The notes beneath the pieces are model-generated. The model saw only the letters and a program-made list of their open reading frames with translations. It was not told the DNA's origin and searched no databases. 64,000 nt of DNA, taken from positions 35,030,001 to 35,094,000 of the forward strand of contig NC_135808.1 of the NCBI RefSeq assembly GCF_964213995.1. The letters are read 5' to 3'. Below are positions 223-54,790 of the stretch, piece after piece. The position numbers were made by a program, and so were the translations under genes. How positions within the stretch are numbered: the stretch's first letter is position 1; each line of letters starts with the position of its first letter. This DNA is from Mustelus asterias. Lineage: Eukaryota.

Positions 223-619
223 TTCCTCTGGGAGCGGACCTGCGGGGTGGAGACTGTGAGCGGTGAGAGAGAGAGCGCGGACTGTGAGTAAATTCTGGGG
301 TTTTTTTTTTGTCTAATTTTCGGGAGGTTTTTTGTAATTAACGGAAACCGGAAGGCCGCATCGCGAAGCCTGCCGGTAGCTGTAGTTTTTTTTTTTCTCT
401 CACTTACCTTATAAGTACTCGCCTCGGGGTATCGGCCTCAGTGTTCCTCTGGGAGCGGACCTGCGGGGTGGAGACTGTGAGCGGTGAGAGAGAGAGCGCG
501 GACTGTGAGTAAATTCTGGGGTTTTTTTTGTCTAATTTTCGGGAGGTTTTTTGTAATTAACGGAAACCGGAAGGCCGCATCGCGAAGCCTGCCGGTAGCT
601 GTAGTTTTTTTTTCTCTCG
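223..619 (+). repeat. Tandem ~221-bp 5' UTR monomers of the CR1 element
   Basis: TTCCTCTGGGAGCGGACC starts at 223 and again at 444. The copies are near-identical apart from poly-T lengths, are CpG-rich, and each contains an ETS-like AACCGGAAG. Confidence 0.9.
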
Positions 620-754
620 GGCCCCTAGCCCTATAAATTGGTGCAGAGGAGATACCCGATCCTCTACACTGGTAGAGGATCCCACCCTTCCATCCTCCTC
701 TAACCTAATTATAAGTGTGGGGAAGTTCTTTGTTTTCTTTTTTTCTTGCTGGTA

Positions 755-1684
755 ATGGCTTCAGGGATGGCAGTTCAGGCAGTATGCTGCATCTCCTGTG
801 GGATGTATGTGGTGAGGAAATCCAGTAGTGTTTCAGGAGATTTTAGTTGTAAGAAGTGCATTAGATTGCAGCTTCTGGAGGAGCGTGTAAAGGAGATGGA
901 GGGGGAGTTAGAGGAACTCCGCATAATTCGGGAGGCGGAGGTGGAAGTTGATAGGAGTTATAGAGAAATAGTAACTCCTAGAAATGAGGCTTGGGTCAAT
1001 GCCAGGAGGAGGGGTAAGAAGCAATCGGGAAGACAGTCCCCTGGGGCGGTTCCCCTCCATAATAGGTTTTCGGTGCTGGAGGCTACAGTTGAGGAGGAAT
1101 CAACTGAGCATAGAGAGCAGATCTCTGGGGGTGAGCCGAGTGAGAAAGCTCAGGTGGTTAGGGGCTGTAAAAGACTGGGCCTTGTGATTGGGGACTCCAC
1201 AATTAAGGGGACAGATAGGAGGGTCGGAACTAAAGGTAGGGACTCAGGGTTGGTGTGTTGCCTACCAGGGGCTGGGGTCCGGGATGTGTCTGACAGGGTA
1301 TTCAGGACTCTTAGGGGGGAGGGAGATAAACCACAAGTTATTGTACATGTGGGGACACACGACATAGGGAGGATAGGGGAAGGGGATATTAGGCAGGGAT
1401 TTATGGAGTTGGGGTGGAAACTAAAGGCCAAGACTGACAGAGTGGTTATCTCTGGACTCTTGCCTGTACCACGGGATAGTTTAGAGAGGAATAGGGAGAG
1501 GGAAGGTTTGAATTCATGGCTGAGGGGATGGTGCAGGAGGGAGGGGTTCAGGTACTTAAGCAATTGGGGCTCGTACTGGGGAAGGTGTGACCTCTATGAG
1601 AAGGATGGTCTACACCTTAATCAGAAGGGGACCAATATCCTGGGGGGTAAATTTGCTAAGGCCATGCAGGGAGGTTTAAACTGA
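755..1684 (+). CDS. CR1 ORF1: zinc finger/leucine zipper plus SGNH esterase-like domain
   Basis: CxxC...CxxC (CISC, CKKC), coiled coil LEERVKEMEGELEEL, SGNH blocks VIGDS, HVGTHD and DGLH. First ATG at 755. Confidence 0.92.
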   Translation: MASGMAVQAVCCISCGMYVVRKSSSVSGDFSCKKCIRLQLLEERVKEMEGELEELRIIREAEVEVDRSYREIVTPRNEAWVNARRRGKKQSGRQSPGAVPLHNRFSVLEATVEEESTEHREQISGGEPSEKAQVVRGCKRLGLVIGDSTIKGTDRRVGTKGRDSGLVCCLPGAGVRDVSDRVFRTLRGEGDKPQVIVHVGTHDIGRIGEGDIRQGFMELGWKLKAKTDRVVISGLLPVPRDSLERNREREGLNSWLRGWCRREGFRYLSNWGSYWGRCDLYEKDGLHLNQKGTNILGGKFAKAMQGGLN

Positions 1685-1734
1685 TTCGGGGGGGGGGAGG
1701 GATCCTGAGTAGTGGGGCTGAAAGTGAGGGATGC

Positions 1735-4554
1735 ATGGATGGGGACTGCAATGCACGGCATTGCAGAGGTGGGGTGGAGCAGGGTTTGAAATGTGTATAC
1801 TTCAATGCCAGGAGTATTCGCAATAAAGTGGGTGAACTTGCAGCGTGGATCAGTACCTGGGACTTCGATGTTGTGGCTATTTCAGAGACATGGATAGAGC
1901 AGGGGCAGGAATGGATGCTGCAGGTCCCGGGGTTCAAATGTTTTAGTCGAAGTAGGGAAGGAGGTAGAAGAGGGGGAGGGGTAGCATTATTGGTCAGAGA
2001 TTGTATCACAGTGTCAGAGAGGAGGTTTGATGAGGACTTATCTGTTGAGGTAGTATGGGCGGAGATTAGAAATAGGAGAGGAGAGGTCACCCTGTTGGGA
2101 GTCTTTTATAGACCTCCTAAAAGTTCTAGAGAGGTTGAGGAAAGGATTGCGGAGTCAATCCTGCTTAGGAGTGAAAGTAATAGGGTAATTGTTATGGGGG
2201 ATTTTAACTTGACTAATATTGACTGGAATTGTTATAGCTCTAGCTCGTTAGAGGGGTCAGTTTTTGTTCAAAGCGTGCAGGAAGGTTTTTTGACTCAGTA
2301 TGTAGACAGGCCAACTAGAGGTGAGGCTATATTGGATCTGGTGCTGGGAAATGAGCCAGACCAGGTGCTAGACTTGGAAGTTGGTGTGCATTTTGGTGAT
2401 AGTGACCACAATTCGGTTACGTTCACCTTAGTGATGGAAAGGGATAGGCATGAACCTCGGGCCAGTGGTTTTAGCTGGGGGAAGGGTAATTATGAGGCTA
2501 TTAGGAGAGAATTAGGAAACATAGGTTGGACTAGGAGATTACAGGGACTGGGAACGTCCGACATGTGGAGTTTTTTCAAGGAGCAGCTACTGCGAGTCTG
2601 TGATAGGTATGTCCCTGTCAGGCAAGGAGGAATTGGTAGGGCTAGGGAACCGTGGTGCACCAAAAAAGTTTCTTTGTTGGTTAAAAAGAAAAAGGAGGCT
2701 TATGTTCGGATGAGACGTGAGCACTCGGGTAGTGCACTAGAAAGCTTTAGATTGGCTAAGAGGGAGTTGAAGAGCGAGCTTAGAAGGGCTAAAAGGGGAC
2801 ATGAGAAGACTTTGGCGGATAGGGTTAAAGAGAATCCTAAGGCGTTCTATAGGTATGTCAAGAACAGAAGGTTGGTTAGGGCAAGTTTAGGGCCAGTTAT
2901 AGATGGCAGAGGGAAGTTATGTGTGGAACCGGAGGAGATTGGTGAAGCATTGAACCAATATTTCTCTTCGGTGTTCACGCAAGGGGACATGAATATAGCT
3001 GAGGAGGACACTGGGTTGCAGGGGAGTAGAATAGACAGTATTACAGTTGATAAGGAGGATGTGCAGGATATTCTGGAGGGTCTGAAAATAGATAAATCCC
3101 CTGGTCCGGATGGGATTTATCCAAGGATTCTCTGGGAGGCAAGAGAAGTGATTGCAGAGCCTCTGGCTCTGATCTTCAGGTCGTCGTTGGCCTCTGGTAT
3201 AGTACCAGAAGATTGGAGGTTAGCGAATGTTGTCCCATTGTTTAAGAAGGGGAACAGAGACTTCCCCGGGAATTATAGACCGGTGAGTCTCACTTCTGTT
3301 GTCGGCAAGATGTTGGAAAAAATTATAAGGGATAGGATTTATAGTTATTTGGAGAGTAATGAATTGATAGGTGATAGTCAGCATGGTTTTGTGGCAGGTA
3401 GGTCGTGCCTTACTAACCTTATTGAGTTTTTTGAGAAAGTGACCAAGGAGGTGGATGGGGGCAAGGCAGTGGACGTGGTATATATGGATTTTAGTAAGGC
3501 GTTTGATAAGGTTCACCATGGTAGGCTTCTGCAGAAAATGCAGATGTATGGGATTGGGGGTGATCTAGGAAATTGGATCAGGAATTGGCTAGCGGATAGG
3601 AAACAGAGGGTGGTGGTTGATAGTAAATATTCATCATGGAGTGCGGTTACAAGTGGTGTACCTCAGGGATCTGTTTTGGGGCCACTGCTGTTTGTAATAT
3701 TTATTAATGATCTGGATGAGGGTATAGTTGGGTGGATTAGCAAATTTGCTGATGACACCAAAGTCGGTGGTGTGGTAGACAGTGAGGAAGGGTGTCGTAG
3801 TTTGCAGGAAGACTTAGACAGGTTGCAAAGTTGGGCCGAGAGGTGGCGGATGGAGTTTAATGCGGAGAAGTGTGAGGTAATTCACTTTGGTAGGAATAAC
3901 AGATGTGTTGAGTATAGGGCTAACGGGAGGACTTTGAATAGTGTGGAGGAGCAGAGGGATCTAGGTGTATGTGTGCATAGATCCCTGAAAGTTGGGAATC
4001 AAGTAGATAAGGTTGTTAAGAAGGCATATGGTGTCTTGGCGTTTATTGGTAGGGGGATTGAATTTAGGAGTCGTAGCGTTATGTTGCAACTGTACACAAC
4101 TCTGGTGCGGCCGCACTTGGAGTACTGTGTGCAGTTCTGGTCCCCACATTACAGGAAGGATGTGGAGGCTTTGGAGAGGGTGCAGAGGAGGTTTACCAGG
4201 ATGTTGCCTGGTATGGAGGGGAGATCCTATGAGGAGAGGCTGAGGGATTTGGGATTGTTTTCGCTGGAAAGGCGGCGGCTAAGAGGGGATCTTATTGAAA
4301 CATATAAGATGATTAGAGGTTTAGATAGGGTGGATAGTGATAGCCTTTTTCCTCTGATGGAGAAATCCAGCACGAGGGGGCATGGCTTTAAATTGAGGGG
4401 GGGTAGTTATAGAACCGATGTCAGGGGTAGGTTCTTTACCCAGAGGGTGGTGAGGGATTGGAATGCCCTGCCAGCATCAGTTGTAAATGCGCCTAGTTTG
4501 GGGGCGTTTAAGAGATCCGTAGATAGGTTCATGGACGAAAAGAAATTGGTTTAG
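1735..4554 (+). CDS. CR1 ORF2: APE endonuclease plus reverse transcriptase
   Basis: Endonuclease motifs YFNARS, ISETW, GDFN, SDH; RT motifs [28 protein letters not shown]. No stops over 939 aa. The frame is open upstream to 1660, overlapping the end of ORF1. Confidence 0.97.
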   Translation: MDGDCNARHCRGGVEQGLKCVYFNARSIRNKVGELAAWISTWDFDVVAISETWIEQGQEWMLQVPGFKCFSRSREGGRRGGGVALLVRDCITVSERRFDEDLSVEVVWAEIRNRRGEVTLLGVFYRPPKSSREVEERIAESILLRSESNRVIVMGDFNLTNIDWNCYSSSSLEGSVFVQSVQEGFLTQYVDRPTRGEAILDLVLGNEPDQVLDLEVGVHFGDSDHNSVTFTLVMERDRHEPRASGFSWGKGNYEAIRRELGNIGWTRRLQGLGTSDMWSFFKEQLLRVCDRYVPVRQGGIGRAREPWCTKKVSLLVKKKKEAYVRMRREHSGSALESFRLAKRELKSELRRAKRGHEKTLADRVKENPKAFYRYVKNRRLVRASLGPVIDGRGKLCVEPEEIGEALNQYFSSVFTQGDMNIAEEDTGLQGSRIDSITVDKEDVQDILEGLKIDKSPGPDGIYPRILWEAREVIAEPLALIFRSSLASGIVPEDWRLANVVPLFKKGNRDFPGNYRPVSLTSVVGKMLEKIIRDRIYSYLESNELIGDSQHGFVAGRSCLTNLIEFFEKVTKEVDGGKAVDVVYMDFSKAFDKVHHGRLLQKMQMYGIGGDLGNWIRNWLADRKQRVVVDSKYSSWSAVTSGVPQGSVLGPLLFVIFINDLDEGIVGWISKFADDTKVGGVVDSEEGCRSLQEDLDRLQSWAERWRMEFNAEKCEVIHFGRNNRCVEYRANGRTLNSVEEQRDLGVCVHRSLKVGNQVDKVVKKAYGVLAFIGRGIEFRSRSVMLQLYTTLVRPHLEYCVQFWSPHYRKDVEALERVQRRFTRMLPGMEGRSYEERLRDLGLFSLERRRLRGDLIETYKMIRGLDRVDSDSLFPLMEKSSTRGHGFKLRGGSYRTDVRGRFFTQRVVRDWNALPASVVNAPSLGAFKRSVDRFMDEKKLV

Positions 4555-6594
4555 GTTGGAGGGTCACAGTTTTTTTTTTTTTTTTTTTAACTGGTCGGTG
4601 CAACATCGTGGGCCGAAGGGCCTGTTCTGCGCTGTAATGTTCTATGTTCTATGTTCTATGTTCTAATTCTAAAGAGGGCGCAGGGTCAGTGGGACCTGGG
4701 AGTATAAGCACATAAATCATTGAAGGTGGCAGGACAGATTAAGAGAGTGGTTAATAAAGCATACAACATCTTGGGCTTTATCAATACGGGCATAGAATAC
4801 AAAAACAAGGAAGCTTTGTTAAACCCGCACAAAACATTGTTTCAGACCCAACTGGAGTATTGTCTCCAGTTCTGGACACGGCACTTTAGGAAGGCTGTGA
4901 AGGCATTAGAGAGAGTGCAGAAAAGATTCATGAGAATGGTTCCAGGGATGAGCAACTTCAGTTTTGCAGACAGATTGGAGAAGTTGGGACTGTTCTCCTT
5001 GGAGGGGAAGGTTAAGAGGAGTTTAATAGAGGTTTTCAAATTTGTGTGGGGTCTGGTCAGGGTAGACAGGAAGAAACTGTTCCATTCGTGGAAGGACCAT
5101 GAGTCAGAGGTAGAATGTGCTAAGAGGAGAATGCTGGGAGGTGGTAATAGGTGTGAAGACTCAGCTGAAAGGTTGCTCCACTGTGTGATTCCTCTGAAAT
5201 CTCAGTGGGGTTGGAAGACACCATGAAAAATTAAATCTCACACTCAAAAGATTTATCTTCCATGTAGCTCTCCTTATGTTAAGAGAGCTTGGAACTGATG
5301 TACCTTGGGCATTAAGAGATTTTTAAAATTTCCTCCTTAAAACTCTCTGCATCTTTATCTCTCTCCCCTCCTATAAAATCCTCCTGAAATCCCACCTGTT
5401 TGACCATATTTTTAGTCATCCCCTCCTAATTTCTCCTCCTTTGTCTTGGTGTTAATTTTTCTCTGATTGCGACTCTATGAAACACTTTGGGATGTTTGAC
5501 TATATTAAAGTGCTCCATAAATACTGTTATCCTCTCACATCCCCTCCAATCCTCAAGGTACTGACCTGGAGTTCAGACTGTGGACATCAATTGGCCTCTA
5601 GCGCTCTGTTCGAGTGGCCATTCAGCATGTGTAGACCCAGACAGTGAATGTTGTGAGACAATGGAGACTGTCACAGCCGAGACACATCCTGCCCTCCCCC
5701 TGACTTCCCAGCTGGGCTCACTGATGAGAAATGGGATTCCTGGCTGATTCTCCCCCTCCATAGTCCAGAGATGCTGAGGCTAATTGAAGTCCCTCCATTA
5801 CTACCCCAGGAATGGCTCCTTTCCCAGGTGTTTATGCTGGTAGATTAGAAGCTGAAGCCTTTCTAACCACTGAGTATCTGATTGTCTTCTTGGTCAGAGT
5901 GAGAGTCAGTGACTGACTTGTACCTGATGCTGCACTGAAAGGATGCTGAGTTTATACAGCAGCTTCTATACATATTGATGTCTTCTTCTGGTGATGTTTG
6001 GAATGTGGCCTAAGGTTAAATTGACCTTTTTGAAACAATTAGACTGATGATGGGAGAGGTTGGAGACAGACACTGCTGAGACAGACAGTGCTTTGGAAGG
6101 ACAGCTTCCCTGTGTGAGCACTGGAGGGTAACAACACAGAAAACTCTCAGAGTAATGGAAACAGGTGAGCTGACTCCAAGTCAATGTGGAGATGTCGGTG
6201 TTTGGTGAGAGAGGAAGAGATGAAACAATCCTGACACACGTCACACTGGAAGGGTTTGTCTCCTGCGCGGGTTCACTGATGTTCCAGGGGGTCTTTATTA
6301 CAGAACTCACAGTGATAGGCTTTCTCGACCATGTGACTGTGTTGATGGACTAGGAGATACACTGACTGTGTGAAAGCGTTGTCACACACCTCACAGTTGA
6401 ACTGTTTCTCACCCTGTGTGAATCTGCTAGCGTTCAGGTTGTGTGAAGACTTCAGGAGAGCATCCTTGTCAATCTTAAACTTACTGCCTGATGACCCAGA
6501 ATATTGACAAGTATCAGACAGCTTTGTCACAAAACCAGCATGTGAACACTTTCTCACCTGTATGATGGTCGCAGAGGTTCAATGATCACGTGAA

Positions 6595-7383
6595 TCATTT
6601 GTCATGCATGAATGATTTCTCCTGTGTGTGAATGCGTTGGTGTGCACGGAGGTTCGATAACTGTGAGAATGATTTCTCACACACCACACACTTGAAAGGT
6701 TTCTCGCCTGTGTGAACCCGTCGGTGTGCGCGGAGTGTCGATGAGTCCGAGAATGATTTATCGCACACCTCACACACGAACGGTTTCTCCCCAGTGTGAA
6801 CGCGGCGATGTTGCACGAGTGTTGATGGATGTGTGAAGGCTCGGTCACACACCTCACACTTGAAAGGTTTCTCCCCTGTGTGAATCCTCTGGTGACACAA
6901 GAGATGACAGAATTGGGTGAAACCCATCTCACAAACCTCACATCTGAAGGGTTTCTCCTCTGCATGAATGTTCTGGTGTATCATGAGCCTGGTAGATGTT
7001 GCGAAGGCTTTACCGCAAACCTCACACTTGAAGGGTTTTTCCCCTGTGTGGACTGTCTGGTGGCGTAGGAGACTGGATGATAATGTGAAGCCTTTGTCAC
7101 ACACCTCACAAATGAACAGCTTCTCTCCTGTGTGAATGCGTTGGTGAGCGCAGAGGATCGATGACTGTGAGAATGATTTGTCACACACCTTGCACTTGAA
7201 TGGTTTCTCCCCTGTATGAGTGCGTTGGTGTGTATGGAGAATCGATGACCGTGTGAATGATTTGTTGCACACCTCGCACTTGAATGGCTTCTCCCCAGTG
7301 TGAATGCGTTGGTGTTGCAGCAATGTCGATGACCGTGTGAAGGTTTGGTCACATACCTCACACGCGAATGGTTTCTCTTCCAT
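6595..7383 (-). CDS. Tandem C2H2 zinc-finger protein A (9 fingers, no recognisable KRAB/SCAN/BTB)
   Basis: Nine CxxC-x12-HxxxH units with TGEKPF linkers. Single coding exon preceded by acceptor TTTTACAG (AG at 7848-7847). Confidence 0.9.
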   Translation of the reverse strand: MEEKPFACEVCDQTFTRSSTLLQHQRIHTGEKPFKCEVCNKSFTRSSILHTHQRTHTGEKPFKCKVCDKSFSQSSILCAHQRIHTGEKLFICEVCDKGFTLSSSLLRHQTVHTGEKPFKCEVCGKAFATSTRLMIHQNIHAEEKPFRCEVCEMGFTQFCHLLCHQRIHTGEKPFKCEVCDRAFTHPSTLVQHRRVHTGEKPFVCEVCDKSFSDSSTLRAHRRVHTGEKPFKCVVCEKSFSQLSNLRAHQRIHTQEKSFMHDK

Positions 7384-10335
7384 GTCACTGCTCAGCTCAG
7401 GTAAAAGAGAAGCACTTCATGACTTAGGAGATCTTAAGAGCCTGTGGAGCCCTCCACACACTTGAACAGTCTCTCACCTATAGGAGTAACTCAGTAGTTT
7501 ATGAGGCCCGATGAATGATTGAAGCTCTCACCACAGTTGGAGTTCACTCACACTTTTTCCCAGCCTCACCTTGACTGATCACCCACAGCAAACCTTCGGA
7601 AAGTTTGGTTCTGATGGAAGGTTCCACACCACTGACCATTTTCAGACCTGAGAAATGTCAAAGCTCCCCTGACCTAACCATTTTCCAGATGATGGTTTCA
7701 CTGTCCAAACTTCTCTGTGTTGGACAATGCTGTGAAGGGACTGGATGTCTTCCCATAGTTATGCAGTTGTTCCTTGGGTAATGGTCAGGATCTATCTGCG
7801 GTGTCTATCCTCTCTGTATTCTCTGGTGTAGTACGGTGCAATCCTTCTGTAAAACAGGAAAAGGAAACATGATTTCCTACAACTCCCTCTCCTTCTTTGC
7901 TGAAGGGGCTGACACCTCAGTTGGAGACTGTTCCACAGTGAGTGCCACTCTGCCATTCCCCTATTTGGGGATCAGATACAAGTCCTTTCTTTTTCCTCAC
8001 TTGACTGTCTCACACTCTCTGTTTCCGGCAGAGACACTGGATTGTGACTAGGAGCAGACAATGTGGCTACTTTCTTTCCTACACCCAGACCCCATATTCC
8101 CAGACACCATGAGAACAATAGAAAAGACAGTTGAGTGGAGTGTAAAGCTGGCTATGAATTCACTATGAGCTCACGTTGAGCTGGTAAAGATCAGTTTTAG
8201 CCTGAGAGTATGTGTTCAATATTTAAAACATTCAGGAGAAATGTTAATTTAGTGGAAATTTTGAAAATTGTCCCCTTATTTTCCAAAATTATTTGAAGAA
8301 AATGCACTGGGCAGGTAGTGCTCGAAGCTAAGGAAAATATTGCTTCGCTGATTGAAGGGTTCTGGTTTATCCTGGGAAATTAGATACACTGCACTCACTC
8401 AGACTGCACATCCCAAATTCAGCTATCAGACACAGCACTGGGCAAAACTATCAAATCCAAGACCAGACTTTTGGGAAAGGCCGAGGCCTTCAGGTAAAAT
8501 CTTTAAAGAAGACATTAAAAGATAAGTCTCCTCTCACCCTATCAGCATATCTGTTCCTTCATCCCTCATATTATCTAGTTTCCCCTAAAAGACAGCTATG
8601 TTATTCACCTCAACTCCGCCATGTTGTGATACTGAGTTTAATACATTTTGGAATTGAATCAAAATAAAATCATGAAAACTTTCAGGTTGTCCTAAAACTG
8701 AAATATTGTCTTTCAGGGAAGGGAATCTGCTGCAACTGCCTAGTCTGGTCTACATATGACTCCAGTCCCACACAACATGGTTGAAGCTGATCTGCCCTCT
8801 GAAGTGGCCCAGCAAACAATGAGAAACAATCACTACAAAGTCCACTAAGAGGAAAATCAGGGAGATCTGGATAATCCTGACATTGTGTCAGAATAAGATT
8901 AAGATGGTCTCAGCCCAGTGAAACCTGTAAAGTCTCTCTTCCCAAGGTCTGAGGAAAAGTTCCCAAGTGAGGAGAGCTGCTCACAGACTGGTCAAGTAGC
9001 AGTGATACTCACTGAATCGTATCAATCTGGAAACATTCCAGACTCCTCCCTCACCATCCCTGGGAATGTCCCATCTCATTCGCACGGGAAGTTCTCAATA
9101 TTGACTCAATGGAGTCTCATGCCTTCAGGTCAAATAAGTGCAAGGAAAACTACAACTCCCCTCCCAGCTGATGAGTGAGTACTTCACCCTGTTAATCATC
9201 ACTGGGAAAGTAGACCAAGGACAGATCCCAAAACTGGGTATCCATGAGGTGCAGTGAGCCATCAGCAGCAGCAGGATTGTATTCACCACAATCTCACAGC
9301 CCGGCACAGCCCTCATTCCATGATTGTCAGCAAAAGAGTAGATAGACGTGTCAGGAACATCAAGGGTTATACTTTAGAGTCCAGGTTTGAACCGAGGAAA
9401 GAGGCTAAACATCCAGAGTAACTTGTAGTAAACAGAACTAAACTAATGTCTAATGTAGGGTGTTCAGTCAGGTTGAAAGTTAAAGTGGTGTTATTTTTAC
9501 TCTAATTTATTGTATTTGTGGCTGCCTACGTACTGTTTAGTCAGTTTGTTAGATTAAAATTCTGAAAATTTCAAATTGTCCTTAAGATTCCTTTCAGTCG
9601 GTCACTGGGAATTTAAGTTTCTTTTGCACGTTATTGGTCTCCAGTGGGATTGTAACAATCACTGATTCAACACCATTAAAAAACAGATTAACTGGGCATT
9701 GTCATACTGCTGTTTGTGGGAGCTTGCTGTGCCTACGTTGGTTGCCAAATTTCCGACATTACAACAGTGACTGCATATCAAAAGTACTTCACTGGCTGTA
9801 AAGAGCTTTGGGACATCTAGTAGTCCTGAAAGGCTTGATATAAATGCGAGTCTTTTCTTCTGAGAAGGTTACTGACATAGGGAGTGAGAGGTCTTGGAGA
9901 GATTTGAAAAATATAGGAAACATCCAGATCACAACAGACATAACTGACCATTCACAGTCCACAGGATAATAACCAGCTTCCAACACACACACACACACAC
10001 AACTCAACAATAGGAAGTCAGTAAGAATCCTCAAACACTCTGACCTCCCAGATAATTACACCTCACCTTCTCATATTCAGCAATGACCCATCAACAAAAC
10101 TCAGCCTGTAAATCAGAAGGGAAATGCTTCCAATAAACACACTCAATATCCAACACACAGCTCCAATCAAACAGCTCAGCACAAAGCACCGAGTAAACAG
10201 GTCTCTCAGCTGAATCTTCTCACACAGAATAAGGGGCATTTCCACACCTGATTCCCCACAGGATAGTCAGACTGCCTGAACATTAGTGTGGATATTATGC
10301 ACTGTAATTATTATAAATTCTGCTCCTTCACTCAC

Positions 10336-10790
10336 CATCTCCTCACTTGGTTTTCAGTCCCTACAGGAAGTGAAGCAGCTGTGAAAGAGGAAGAGGAGAG
10401 AATGGGCAGAGTGGGTGGGCTCTCTGATTGACGTCTCTCACAGCCAATCCTAATATTTCTGGAGTAACAGGAGCTTCCTGAAGCTTGGGAAACTGACCGG
10501 TGAAACGGAGGCAACTTTGAGCAGCAGATCAGGTGGGGATTTAAACTTGTAATTGTCCCATCTGAATAAAACCTCACTTATTGCAGCTGCTGTCTCAGTT
10601 CCCCTGGTAAATGTTGGACAGAGATTTCTAGTGCGGGAATAGCATTCTTCATCTTCGGAGGCTTTCAAACTGACAACATCAGTGTGGGATCTGTAACCTC
10701 GGATGTGTTTGACAGCAGATCAGAAGAGGAAGGCCGACAGCATCCAAGGCAGTGATGATGTGCAGTGGTGGGATCAGCACATGGACAGGA
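10336..10790 (-). promoter_or_regulatory. Putative promoter and short first exon of ZNF A
   Basis: Module highly similar to 18465-18910 and 63551-64000. Ends in GAGATG|GTGAGT donor (exon end 10336). Contains CCAAT, CRE-like TGACGTC and ETS-like AGGAAGTG motifs. Confidence 0.6.
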
Positions 10791-30389: not shown

Positions 30390-31660
30390 ATTTCCGTTCC
30401 ATTTTGTGTTCTTTTCCATAATTACCTTAAATCTTGGGAGTTATGGTCACTATCACCAAAATGCTCTCCCACTGACACTTCTACCATCTGCCTGGCTTCA
30501 TTCCCTAAAATTAGGTCAAGTACCATCCCCTATCTTGTAGGACTTTCTACATGCTAGCTCAAAATGTTCTCCTCGATGCACTTAAAGAATTCCACCTCCT
30601 CGAAGCCTATCCCAATTAATATTGGGGAAGTTGAAATCGCCTACCATTATTATCCTATTATTTTACACTTCACTGAGATTTGTCTATATATCTGCTCTCC
30701 TATCTCTCTGTGATTGTTTGAGGGCCTATAGTACACTTCCAGCACTGTGATTGCCCTCTTTTTGTTTTTGGGTTTCCCCAAATGGCCTCAATTGAGGAGC
30801 CTGCTAAGATATTATCCCTCCTCACTGCAGTAATTGGCTCCTTGATCAATAGTGCCACACCATATCCTCTTTTACACGCCTTCAGTTCATCAGCCACATG
30901 TGTCAGACTCCTTGCATTAAAATAAGTGCCATCCAACCTTGCATATTCCTATGTGCTTTAACATGTCTGTCTTTGCATTGCCTTCTAGACTGACTTAGTT
31001 TTTCTTTCATATTTGGTTGTGCATCACCTCTCCCCCCCAACTGTACCTCCACTCTGTGACTTGTCCACTTGCCAAATTAGTCCATACCTTCCCCCAACAG
31101 CACTAAGCAAACCTCTCGCAAGGGTTTTAGCCCCATTCCGGTTCAGGTACAACCCATCCAACTTTTACCCATCTCACCTTTCCCAGAAAAGGATCTAGTG
31201 ATTCAGGAAACTAAACGCCTGCACCAACTCCTCAACCAAGAACATCTATCTATCCTTTTCCTATATTTACTAGCACATGGAACCGGGAGTAATCCAGAGA
31301 TTCCAACCTTTGAGGTTCTACTTTTCAATCTGTGACATAGCTACCTAAATTCTTGCTGCAGGACCTTGTCCCTCTTTCTGCCTAGGTTATTGGTACTGAT
31401 GTGAACCATGACCTCTAACTGTTCACCCTCCCCCTTCAGAATACCCTACAGCTGTTTTGTTACATCCTTGATCTTGGCACCAGGGAGGCAACACACCATC
31501 CTGGAGTCACTTCTGTGGCCACAGAAATGCCTGTCGGCATCCCTCACTATGAGTCTCCTACTCCTATTGCTCTACTGCTCTTACTCATCCCCTTTGTGCA
31601 GCTGAGCCACCCACAGTGCCGCGAACTTGGCTCTGGCTGCACTCCCCAGTGGAACAATCA
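30390..31660 (-). mobile_element. Old CR1 fragment spanning the ORF1 esterase end and ORF2 endonuclease
   Basis: YFNARS and GVALLIKE motifs on the minus strand; esterase-like remnants at 31100-31560. Confidence 0.7.
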
Positions 31661-54300: not shown

Positions 54301-54790
54301 CTCTGTCTCGCCTAAAACACTTGTACCCCGGAATATTCAGCTGCCTGTCCCTCTTTCAACCAAGTCTCTGTCACCGCAACCACATCCAAATTCCTCGTGA
54401 GCATTAAGGCCCTAAGTTCATCTGTCTTTCCTGCTACGCTCCTTGCATTGAAGTATAAGCACTCCAGACCTCCAGGCCCAGTGAGGTCATCCTCCCCCAG
54501 AGTGCTCTTCTTCTTTGCCAGCCTTGTCCCAGCCCCAAGCTCGTCCCCAGCCTCTACACTTGTAGACCTAATATTTTGATCCCCTCCCCCCTGCCATACT
54601 AGTTTAAATCCCCCCGAACTGCATTAGCAAAACTCCCAGCCAGGATATTCGTGCCCTTCCAACTTAGTTGTGACCCGGCCTTCTTGTACAGGTGCCATCC
54701 TCTCCTGAAAACTTCCCATTGATCTAGGAAAATGAAGCCCTCCCTCCTGGACCAGTCCTTTAGCCAAGCATTCAATTTTACTAACTCCCT
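51344..54790 (-). mobile_element. CR1 element D: ORF1 C-terminus plus nearly complete ORF2
   Basis: ORFs 52625-54244 and 51420-52382. TSD ATAAG at 51339-51343 and 54791-54795. (TTGTTCT)n tail. Confidence 0.92.
52404..52650. mobile_element. Penelope-derived inverted pseudo-LTR hairpin element with hammerhead ribozyme core
   Basis: 99-bp arms 52441-52539 and 52552-52650 (1 mismatch), each with CTGAAGA-stem-GAAAGCTT. 13-bp TSD TTCTGTGACCAAG at 52391-52403 and 52651-52663. Confidence 0.88.

Follow-up and report, generated by a model that had tools for sequence, protein, structure and literature searches.

A slippery heptamer, an abutting stop codon and a G-tract at the ORF1/ORF2 junction of an esterase-type CR1 retrotransposon point to probable −1 ribosomal frameshifting

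In coronavirus ORF1a/1b and retroviral gag-pol, a slippery heptamer such as U_UUA_AAC lies in phase within a −1 overlap, and a structural open reading frame (ORF) precedes the polymerase ORF (PMC5009743). For long interspersed elements (LINEs), translation of ORF2 has been called an open question (PMC3894237), and the routes listed in that text's passages on ORF2 are stop-start coupling, reinitiation, internal ribosome entry sites and 2A, frameshifting not being among them. A LINE frameshift is nevertheless not without precedent, since the Dictyostelium APE-type non-LTR (long terminal repeat) elements TRE5-A and TRE3-A are stated in a review legend to need a −1 frameshift for ORF2 (PMC5911963); they belong to another lineage and carry another ORF1, and the legend draws no link to CR1. 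CR1-group elements are described as the dominant retrotransposons in most vertebrates (PMC13343379). Here we analysed a young, full-length CR1 LINE in a 64,000-nucleotide stretch of the Mustelus asterias genome (NC_135808.1, positions 35,030,001 to 35,094,000, hereafter the window). Judging from sequence comparison, it is likely that programmed −1 frameshifting at a conserved U_UUA_AAC/stop/G-tract junction yields a fusion of ORF1, endonuclease and reverse transcriptase (RT) in this element.

The element conforms to the esterase-type vertebrate CR1, that is, the canonical CR1 of PMC13343379, with the same zinc-finger/coiled-coil/esterase ORF1 (the esterase as in PDB 4c1b), an ORF2 with APE endonuclease and RT, and a short-repeat 3′ tail; neither poly(A) nor LTRs were found (Table 1). 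In term searches, the main texts of PMC13343379, a 2026 survey of CR1, and of PMC4120745 did not mention a frameshift, an overlap or an ORF2 translation route for CR1, and the term CR1 was not found in the first 300,000 characters of PMC5009743. Within the literature searched on CR1/LINE frameshifting, whose scope excluded older subscription papers and Repbase notes (chicken, turtle CR1), there was no CR1 report of this site.

Table 1. Coordinates in the window of the CR1 element, its junction and two further CR1 copies
Feature	Position	Strand	Remark
Full-length young CR1 LINE, shark-type, intact	223..4664	+	Sits within an older CR1 fragment
5′ untranslated region (UTR)	223..618	+	Two ~177-nt units, 223-399 and 444-618, 98% identical
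ORF1, 309 aa	755..1684	+	CxxC...CxxC, coiled coil, SGNH/GDSL esterase; C-terminus G-L-N-stop
TAA shutting the −1 frame	1657..1659	+	Five codons 5′ of the heptamer, no AUG between
ORF2 frame (−1), 964 codons	1660..4554	+	APE endonuclease ~1798-2409, RT ~3247-3900
Slippery heptamer U_UUA_AAC (TTTAAAC), ORF1 phase	1675..1681	+	Last two ORF1 codons
ORF1 stop TGA, abutting the heptamer	1682..1684	+	
Proximal G-tract, G10-A-GGG	1688..1701	+	Conserved candidate stimulator
Distal G-tracts	1714..1744	+	Not conserved in relatives
Sole in-frame AUG ahead of the endonuclease	1735..1737	+	ATA in sister-lineage contigs of three runs
3′ tail, short (ATGTTCT)-type repeats	4637..4664	+	Without poly(A)
Third CR1 copy, heavily decayed	31077..31086	−	Heptamer position reads TATGGAC-TAA; scored as a miss
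Second CR1 family copy, ~65% identical	54599..54608	−	T_TTA_AAC-TAG, G6-A-G4, 51-codon −1 linker to the endonuclease, no AUG

ORF1 ends GGT TTA AAC TGA, which places a heptamer of the X_XXY_YYZ form in 0-frame phase before the stop, and the −1 frame that holds endonuclease and RT is open across it. The original prediction had located the in-phase TTTAAAC, the TGA next to it and the −1 frame open from 1660, and these coordinates were borne out. TTTAAAC by itself is frequent, with 16 occurrences in the window; the junction site is the only in-phase XXX_YYY_Z heptamer among the 309 codons of ORF1. When the pattern was extended to heptamer, TRR, G5 and G3, two matches were obtained in the window, both of them CR1 junctions, and none in 100 shuffles, the pattern having itself been derived from these CR1 junctions. 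An assembly indel was considered as the cause of the frame offset and rejected. Indeed, family contigs 99% alike to the element (runs X1 and X12) span the junction, and no substitution or indel is listed in them at 1660-1745; the offset therefore belongs to the family and is not the error of a single copy.

We then asked how far the junction is conserved. Using esterase-core peptide patterns that excluded the ORF1 C-terminus, 35 loci were fetched, 19 of which end short of the junction and were dropped. The remaining 16, together with three copies in the window, gave 19 readable junctions. An in-phase (T/G)TTAAAC formed the last ORF1 codons in 15 of the 19, including 13 of the 16 fetched loci (12 TTTAAAC and one GTTAAAC, in L002). 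The check put forward in the original prediction, whether different CR1 families keep the heptamer and its phase, thus came out in its favour. Twelve of the 13 heptamer-bearing loci were nearest to named reptile or bird proteins, L002 representing a separate lineage, and loose contig ends of more distant families (runs X16 and X17) also read TTTAAACTAR. Scans of viral contigs with the A1, A2 and A3 profiles found no relatives, a motif scan of viral DNA gave 17 loci of which none had a CR1 ORF1 or endonuclease, a plasmid search had no matches, and genome G001 yielded only a 531-bp contig that stops short of the junction. Four stork gene models from a search for longer proteins were kept out of the evidence.

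The families compared are highly divergent. Shark-type and reptile/bird-type ORF1 tails are about 21-30% identical, and between families the same codon is used at 19-61% of identical residues (91% in one close pair), synonymous sites being near saturation. Even so, Leu was TTA and Asn was AAC in all 15 heptamer junctions. In the window element, TTA serves 13 of 99 Leu and AAC 8 of 37 Asn, and for each element, the residues being fixed, T-TTA-AAC would arise with a probability of 0.004-0.028. This fixation, despite low codon use and divergence, indicates that selection on the protein does not account for the codons: conservation at the nucleotide level exceeds protein need. The stop 3′ of the heptamer varies among the 15 junctions (TAG in ten, TGA in two, TAA in one, none in two decayed copies), whereas the heptamer stays constant. 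These data bear on the possibility that the motif is kept for some other reason, be it that the protein requires Leu-Asn at its C-terminus, or that the site serves in splicing or as a DNA/RNA element. Leu and Asn are invariant in alignment A1, and several loci read TAG followed by GT, like a splice site. However, a protein need would not fix codons, AG is missing where the stop is TGA or TAA, the 4c1b-like esterase clade (see below) does without LN or GN ends, and contigs had no joint near the junction, though contigs show presence and not absence. We regard this explanation as very improbable.

ORF1 protein C-termini offered a broader view. Among the first homologs, 31 of 39 end in Leu-Asn, and the remaining eight look truncated, frameshifted or fused. 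In an enlarged set of 206 ORF1 proteins, 155 had a complete C-terminus according to a profile from which the last columns were omitted; of these, 91 end in LN, 19 in GN, one in KN and 44 otherwise. In a quick IQ-TREE search with 147 of the 155 proteins (eight with short domains were left out), the clade with named vertebrate proteins had 67 LN ends out of 74, a further clade of 32 had 18 GN, one KN, one LN and 12 other ends, and the clade resembling PDB chain 4c1b had LN or GN in none of 10. We take 4c1b to be the zebrafish L2 element ZfL2-1. The residue before GN was Q in 17, S in one and K in one, all able to end in G, and the KN case reads S-KN. The LN, GN and KN endings fit U_UUA_AAC, G_GGA_AAC and A_AAA_AAC, the codons behind GN and KN being back-read from protein. 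These three are among the four heptamers listed as most shift-prone in mammalian ribosomes (PMC5009743), and the G_UUA_AAC of L002 matches an arterivirus variant given in the same source. A few distant esterase ORF1s (P0135, P0140, P0159, P0145) have (R/T/S)-K-N or W-G-F a few codons from their ends, which is compatible with A_AAA_AAC or G_GGU_UUU sites and longer overlaps.

Where could ORF2 be entered? A stop 1-5 codons 5′ of the heptamer shuts the −1 frame in 11 of the 15 heptamer junctions, and none of the 15 has an upstream −1 AUG; entry is therefore at or after the heptamer. Downstream, the −1 frame runs open from the heptamer into ORF2 in the window. Of 12 junctions that could be evaluated, 11 had the endonuclease in this frame, two of them read by eye, with linkers of 37-93 codons. 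Use of ORF2's own AUG by leaky or internal initiation, the heptamer being incidental, has in its favour that the in-frame AUG at 1735 stands 21 codons ahead of the endonuclease motif and has G at +4, and that 8 of 11 linkers contain an AUG; the next in-frame AUG, at 1915, is already within the endonuclease. Against it, chance alone would put an AUG in about 6.2 linkers, and the positions are not shared. Dependence on AUG 1735 had been set out beforehand as one outcome that would undo the frameshift proposal, and this AUG turned out not to be conserved: among the higher-ranked matches listed, it is ATA in all covering sister-lineage contigs of runs X16, X17 and X18, though lower-ranked ones may yet hold a compensating AUG, and neither the second window copy (54608), throughout its linker, nor L022 has any AUG. 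As this model also leaves the codon-level conservation of the heptamer unexplained, we give it hardly any credence.

Termination-reinitiation deserves more attention. Here ribosomes that terminate at the end of ORF1 would resume close by in the −1 frame, either at an AUG or, as in L1, without one, with the heptamer, stop and G-tract holding the ribosome. As would be expected of CR1, L1 and SART1 have a bicistronic LINE RNA and low ORF2 output. SART1 uses UAAUG coupling (PMC3894237, PMC10275272), L1 is reported to tolerate sense replacements of its AUG (PMC1965478), and an open −1 linker would be equally expected. In CR1, 5 of 13 evaluable junctions carry an AUG that begins 0-2 nt past the stop, and two more loci have GUG at that place; the window has no such stop-adjacent AUG. 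Most CR1 junctions show neither the spacer of L1 nor the stop-start of SART1, but a fixed slippery heptamer. Reinitiation would leave unexplained the fixed TTA-AAC codons with their 5′ T, and also why ORF1 endings move among LN, GN and KN, all of XXY-YYC form, while the putative restart codon varies (ATG, GTG, TCG, TGG, CGG, GAA, GCG). We consider it unlikely. The original claim of a fusion rather than reinitiation was sustained in part: the heptamer and its phase are conserved and AUG 1735 is not, but in five relatives the stop is followed at 0-2 nt by an AUG. Separately, the ray gene model P0031 reads in a single frame from ORF1 via F-K-L into the endonuclease. It may derive from a copy with a natural one-base indel, or the model may have been corrected, and we took it only as showing the −1 frame sequence.

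A programmed −1 signal is expected to have a stimulator 5-9 nt downstream, in the form of a pseudoknot, hairpin, G-quadruplex or protein site, and a G-tract is the conserved candidate. In the window, G-runs stand at 1688-1697 (G10), 1699-1701, 1714-1717, 1728-1730 and 1741-1744, the first after a 6-nt spacer, as the original prediction had noted. All 13 evaluable junctions had a G5-10 run starting at +7 to +11 from the heptamer, and in 11 of them a second run of G3-5 came 1-3 nt further on. The tract ranked in the top 1% of its own element's G4Hunter windows in 11 of 13, percentiles that are slightly generous since the best of 12 windows was set against single ones. The residues encoded by the tract differ (G-G-G, G-E-G, G-V-R, G-A-R) while the tract is kept, so the constraint looks to be at the nucleotide level. 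A four-tract G-quadruplex across 1688-1744 was considered as a shared stimulator and rejected, the distal runs not being conserved. Of the predicted stimulatory region, then, the proximal G5-6-N1-3-G3-5 motif stood; the distal tracts and any hairpin or pseudoknot stem did not. The two remaining runs could by themselves form only a two-tier or an intermolecular G-quadruplex. G-quadruplexes placed 5-8 nt after UUUAAAC are reported to have stimulated −1 shifting of as much as ~7% in reporter assays (PMC3919603), and natural use of G-quadruplexes in frameshifting was described as anticipated, not known, as of 2016 (PMC5009743).

The layout and its conservation are observed, as is the fact that no AUG is conserved; the slip, its efficiency, its stimulator and the fate of the fusion we infer, as follows. 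Most ribosomes would stop at UGA and release an ORF1 protein ending G-L-N. A minority would slip by −1, tRNA-Leu and tRNA-Asn re-pairing from UUA and AAC to UUU and AAA; CUG would be read next, giving the junction ...G-L-N then L-I-R..., and translation would continue through ORF2. The predicted product is an ORF1(esterase)-endonuclease-RT fusion of 1266 residues, and the outcome would be a Gag:Gag-Pol-like excess of ORF1 protein over RT. The pause is likely to come from the abutting stop together with the G5-6-N1-3-G3-5 tract at +7 to +11, the latter perhaps by folding into a compact G-quadruplex or by binding a protein. The 6-nt spacer to the candidate stimulator is a further likeness to the coronavirus and gag-pol sites (PMC5009743); unlike them, CR1 has no conserved pseudoknot or hairpin, its stop abuts the heptamer, and no protease domain was found by Pfam. 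Two viral systems could serve as models by analogy (PMC5009743). In PRRSV a short linear motif lies ~11 nt 3′ of where the shift occurs, but this motif is C-rich and protein-bound, whereas that of CR1 is G-rich and a bound protein is hypothetical. In pea enation mosaic virus a nearby stop codon matters for the shift, and in CR1 the stop abuts the heptamer.

Several observations weigh against frameshifting or narrow its basis. ORF2 of L1 reportedly withstands the loss of its AUG (PMC1965478), so reinitiation in CR1 might likewise do without one. ORF1 has been lost in many CR1s (PMC13343379), whose ORF2 protein is evidently able to work unfused. No conserved hairpin or pseudoknot stem was detected at the junctions, the next 90 nt folding like shuffles (z −1.4 to +1.5), and an Rfam search was without match. 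Four readable junctions lack the heptamer, namely the decayed window copy and three distant esterases with no endonuclease in the locus, and in L032 the endonuclease is outside the −1 frame. An AUG follows 2 nt after the stop in L003, L005, L008 and L012, and L033 has the UAAUG stop-start layout of SART1. In this last locus (L033:4492-4503) the heptamer is followed by UAAUG in the −1 frame, and the frameshift and SART1-like signals coincide. One metagenome supplied 6 of the 13 fetched junctions, yet these six span several subfamilies. As to the proteins, the 44 of 155 that end otherwise include three with the terminal residues Glu-Asn, which match no canonical heptamer, and the GN and KN codons are deduced from protein. 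Twelve types of residue precede LN; K, Q, M and W are not among them and E occurs once, a pattern that a codon with final U would produce. Taken by itself this is a weak test, since a similar bias is seen at helix positions −6 and −10.

Programmed −1 frameshifting might extend further. We put forward, tentatively and with more doubt than confidence, that the whole esterase-bearing branch of the CR1 group, from sharks to reptiles plus distant lineages, makes its RT as a Gag-Pol-like ORF1-endonuclease-RT fusion. Its members would swap U_UUA_AAC, G_GGA_AAC, A_AAA_AAC and G_UUA_AAC, driven by the abutting stop and the G-tract (as G-quadruplex or bound by a G-tract protein), with no pseudoknot.

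The element itself is flanked by AATTC at 221-225 and 4665-4669, a candidate 5-bp target duplication. The tandem units of its 5′ UTR contain T-runs of differing length and resemble a modular LINE promoter. The ORF1 frame spans 704-1684, and its AUG at 755 is the first of the element, none occurring further 5′. The ORF1 esterase corresponds to PF13472 (residues 168-292) and matches PDB 4c1b with an E-value of 1e-38, and ORF2 matches PF03372, PF14529 and PF00078. Sharks and rays supply the closest named ORF1 proteins (44-61% identical), and those of turtles come next (34-36%). In the ORF1 tree, close homologs of the window ORF1 (P0001, 97% identical) cluster with shark, ray, turtle and squamate proteins and stand apart from the 4c1b-like clade. 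Some CR1 ORF1 proteins bear misleading database labels: Pseudomonas SGNH hydrolase (P0011), ribosomal protein S24 isoform (P0028) and sarcosine dehydrogenase (P0090). Shark-type copies that are nearly identical turn up in runs (X1-X15) whose labels name eight different organisms and a hot-spring metagenome, which suggests related hosts or carried-over DNA.

Elsewhere in the window, a 273-codon open frame at 6595-7416 (−) encodes C2H2 zinc-finger repeats with TGEKP linkers, a host gene exon adjoining the element. About 15 more CR1 pieces lie at 19200-56300, 5′-truncated or decayed, from several families and 65-73% identical to the young copy. A short repeat is present three times, at 10540, 18668 and 63753 (+), its copies sharing GGGGATTTAAACTTGT(C/A)ATTGTCCCATCTGAATAA; it is probably like a short interspersed element and is not a CR1 junction.

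The junction signal is a fixed 27 nt, which makes the question testable with one reporter. If frameshifting is used, the coiled coil and esterase of ORF1 would lie at the N-terminus of the CR1 polymerase, ORF2 annotations beginning at the first AUG would be wrong, and assays with engineered CR1 would have to retain the junction. Relative to the 2016 account of frameshifting (PMC5009743), a G-tract as natural stimulator would also be a novelty.

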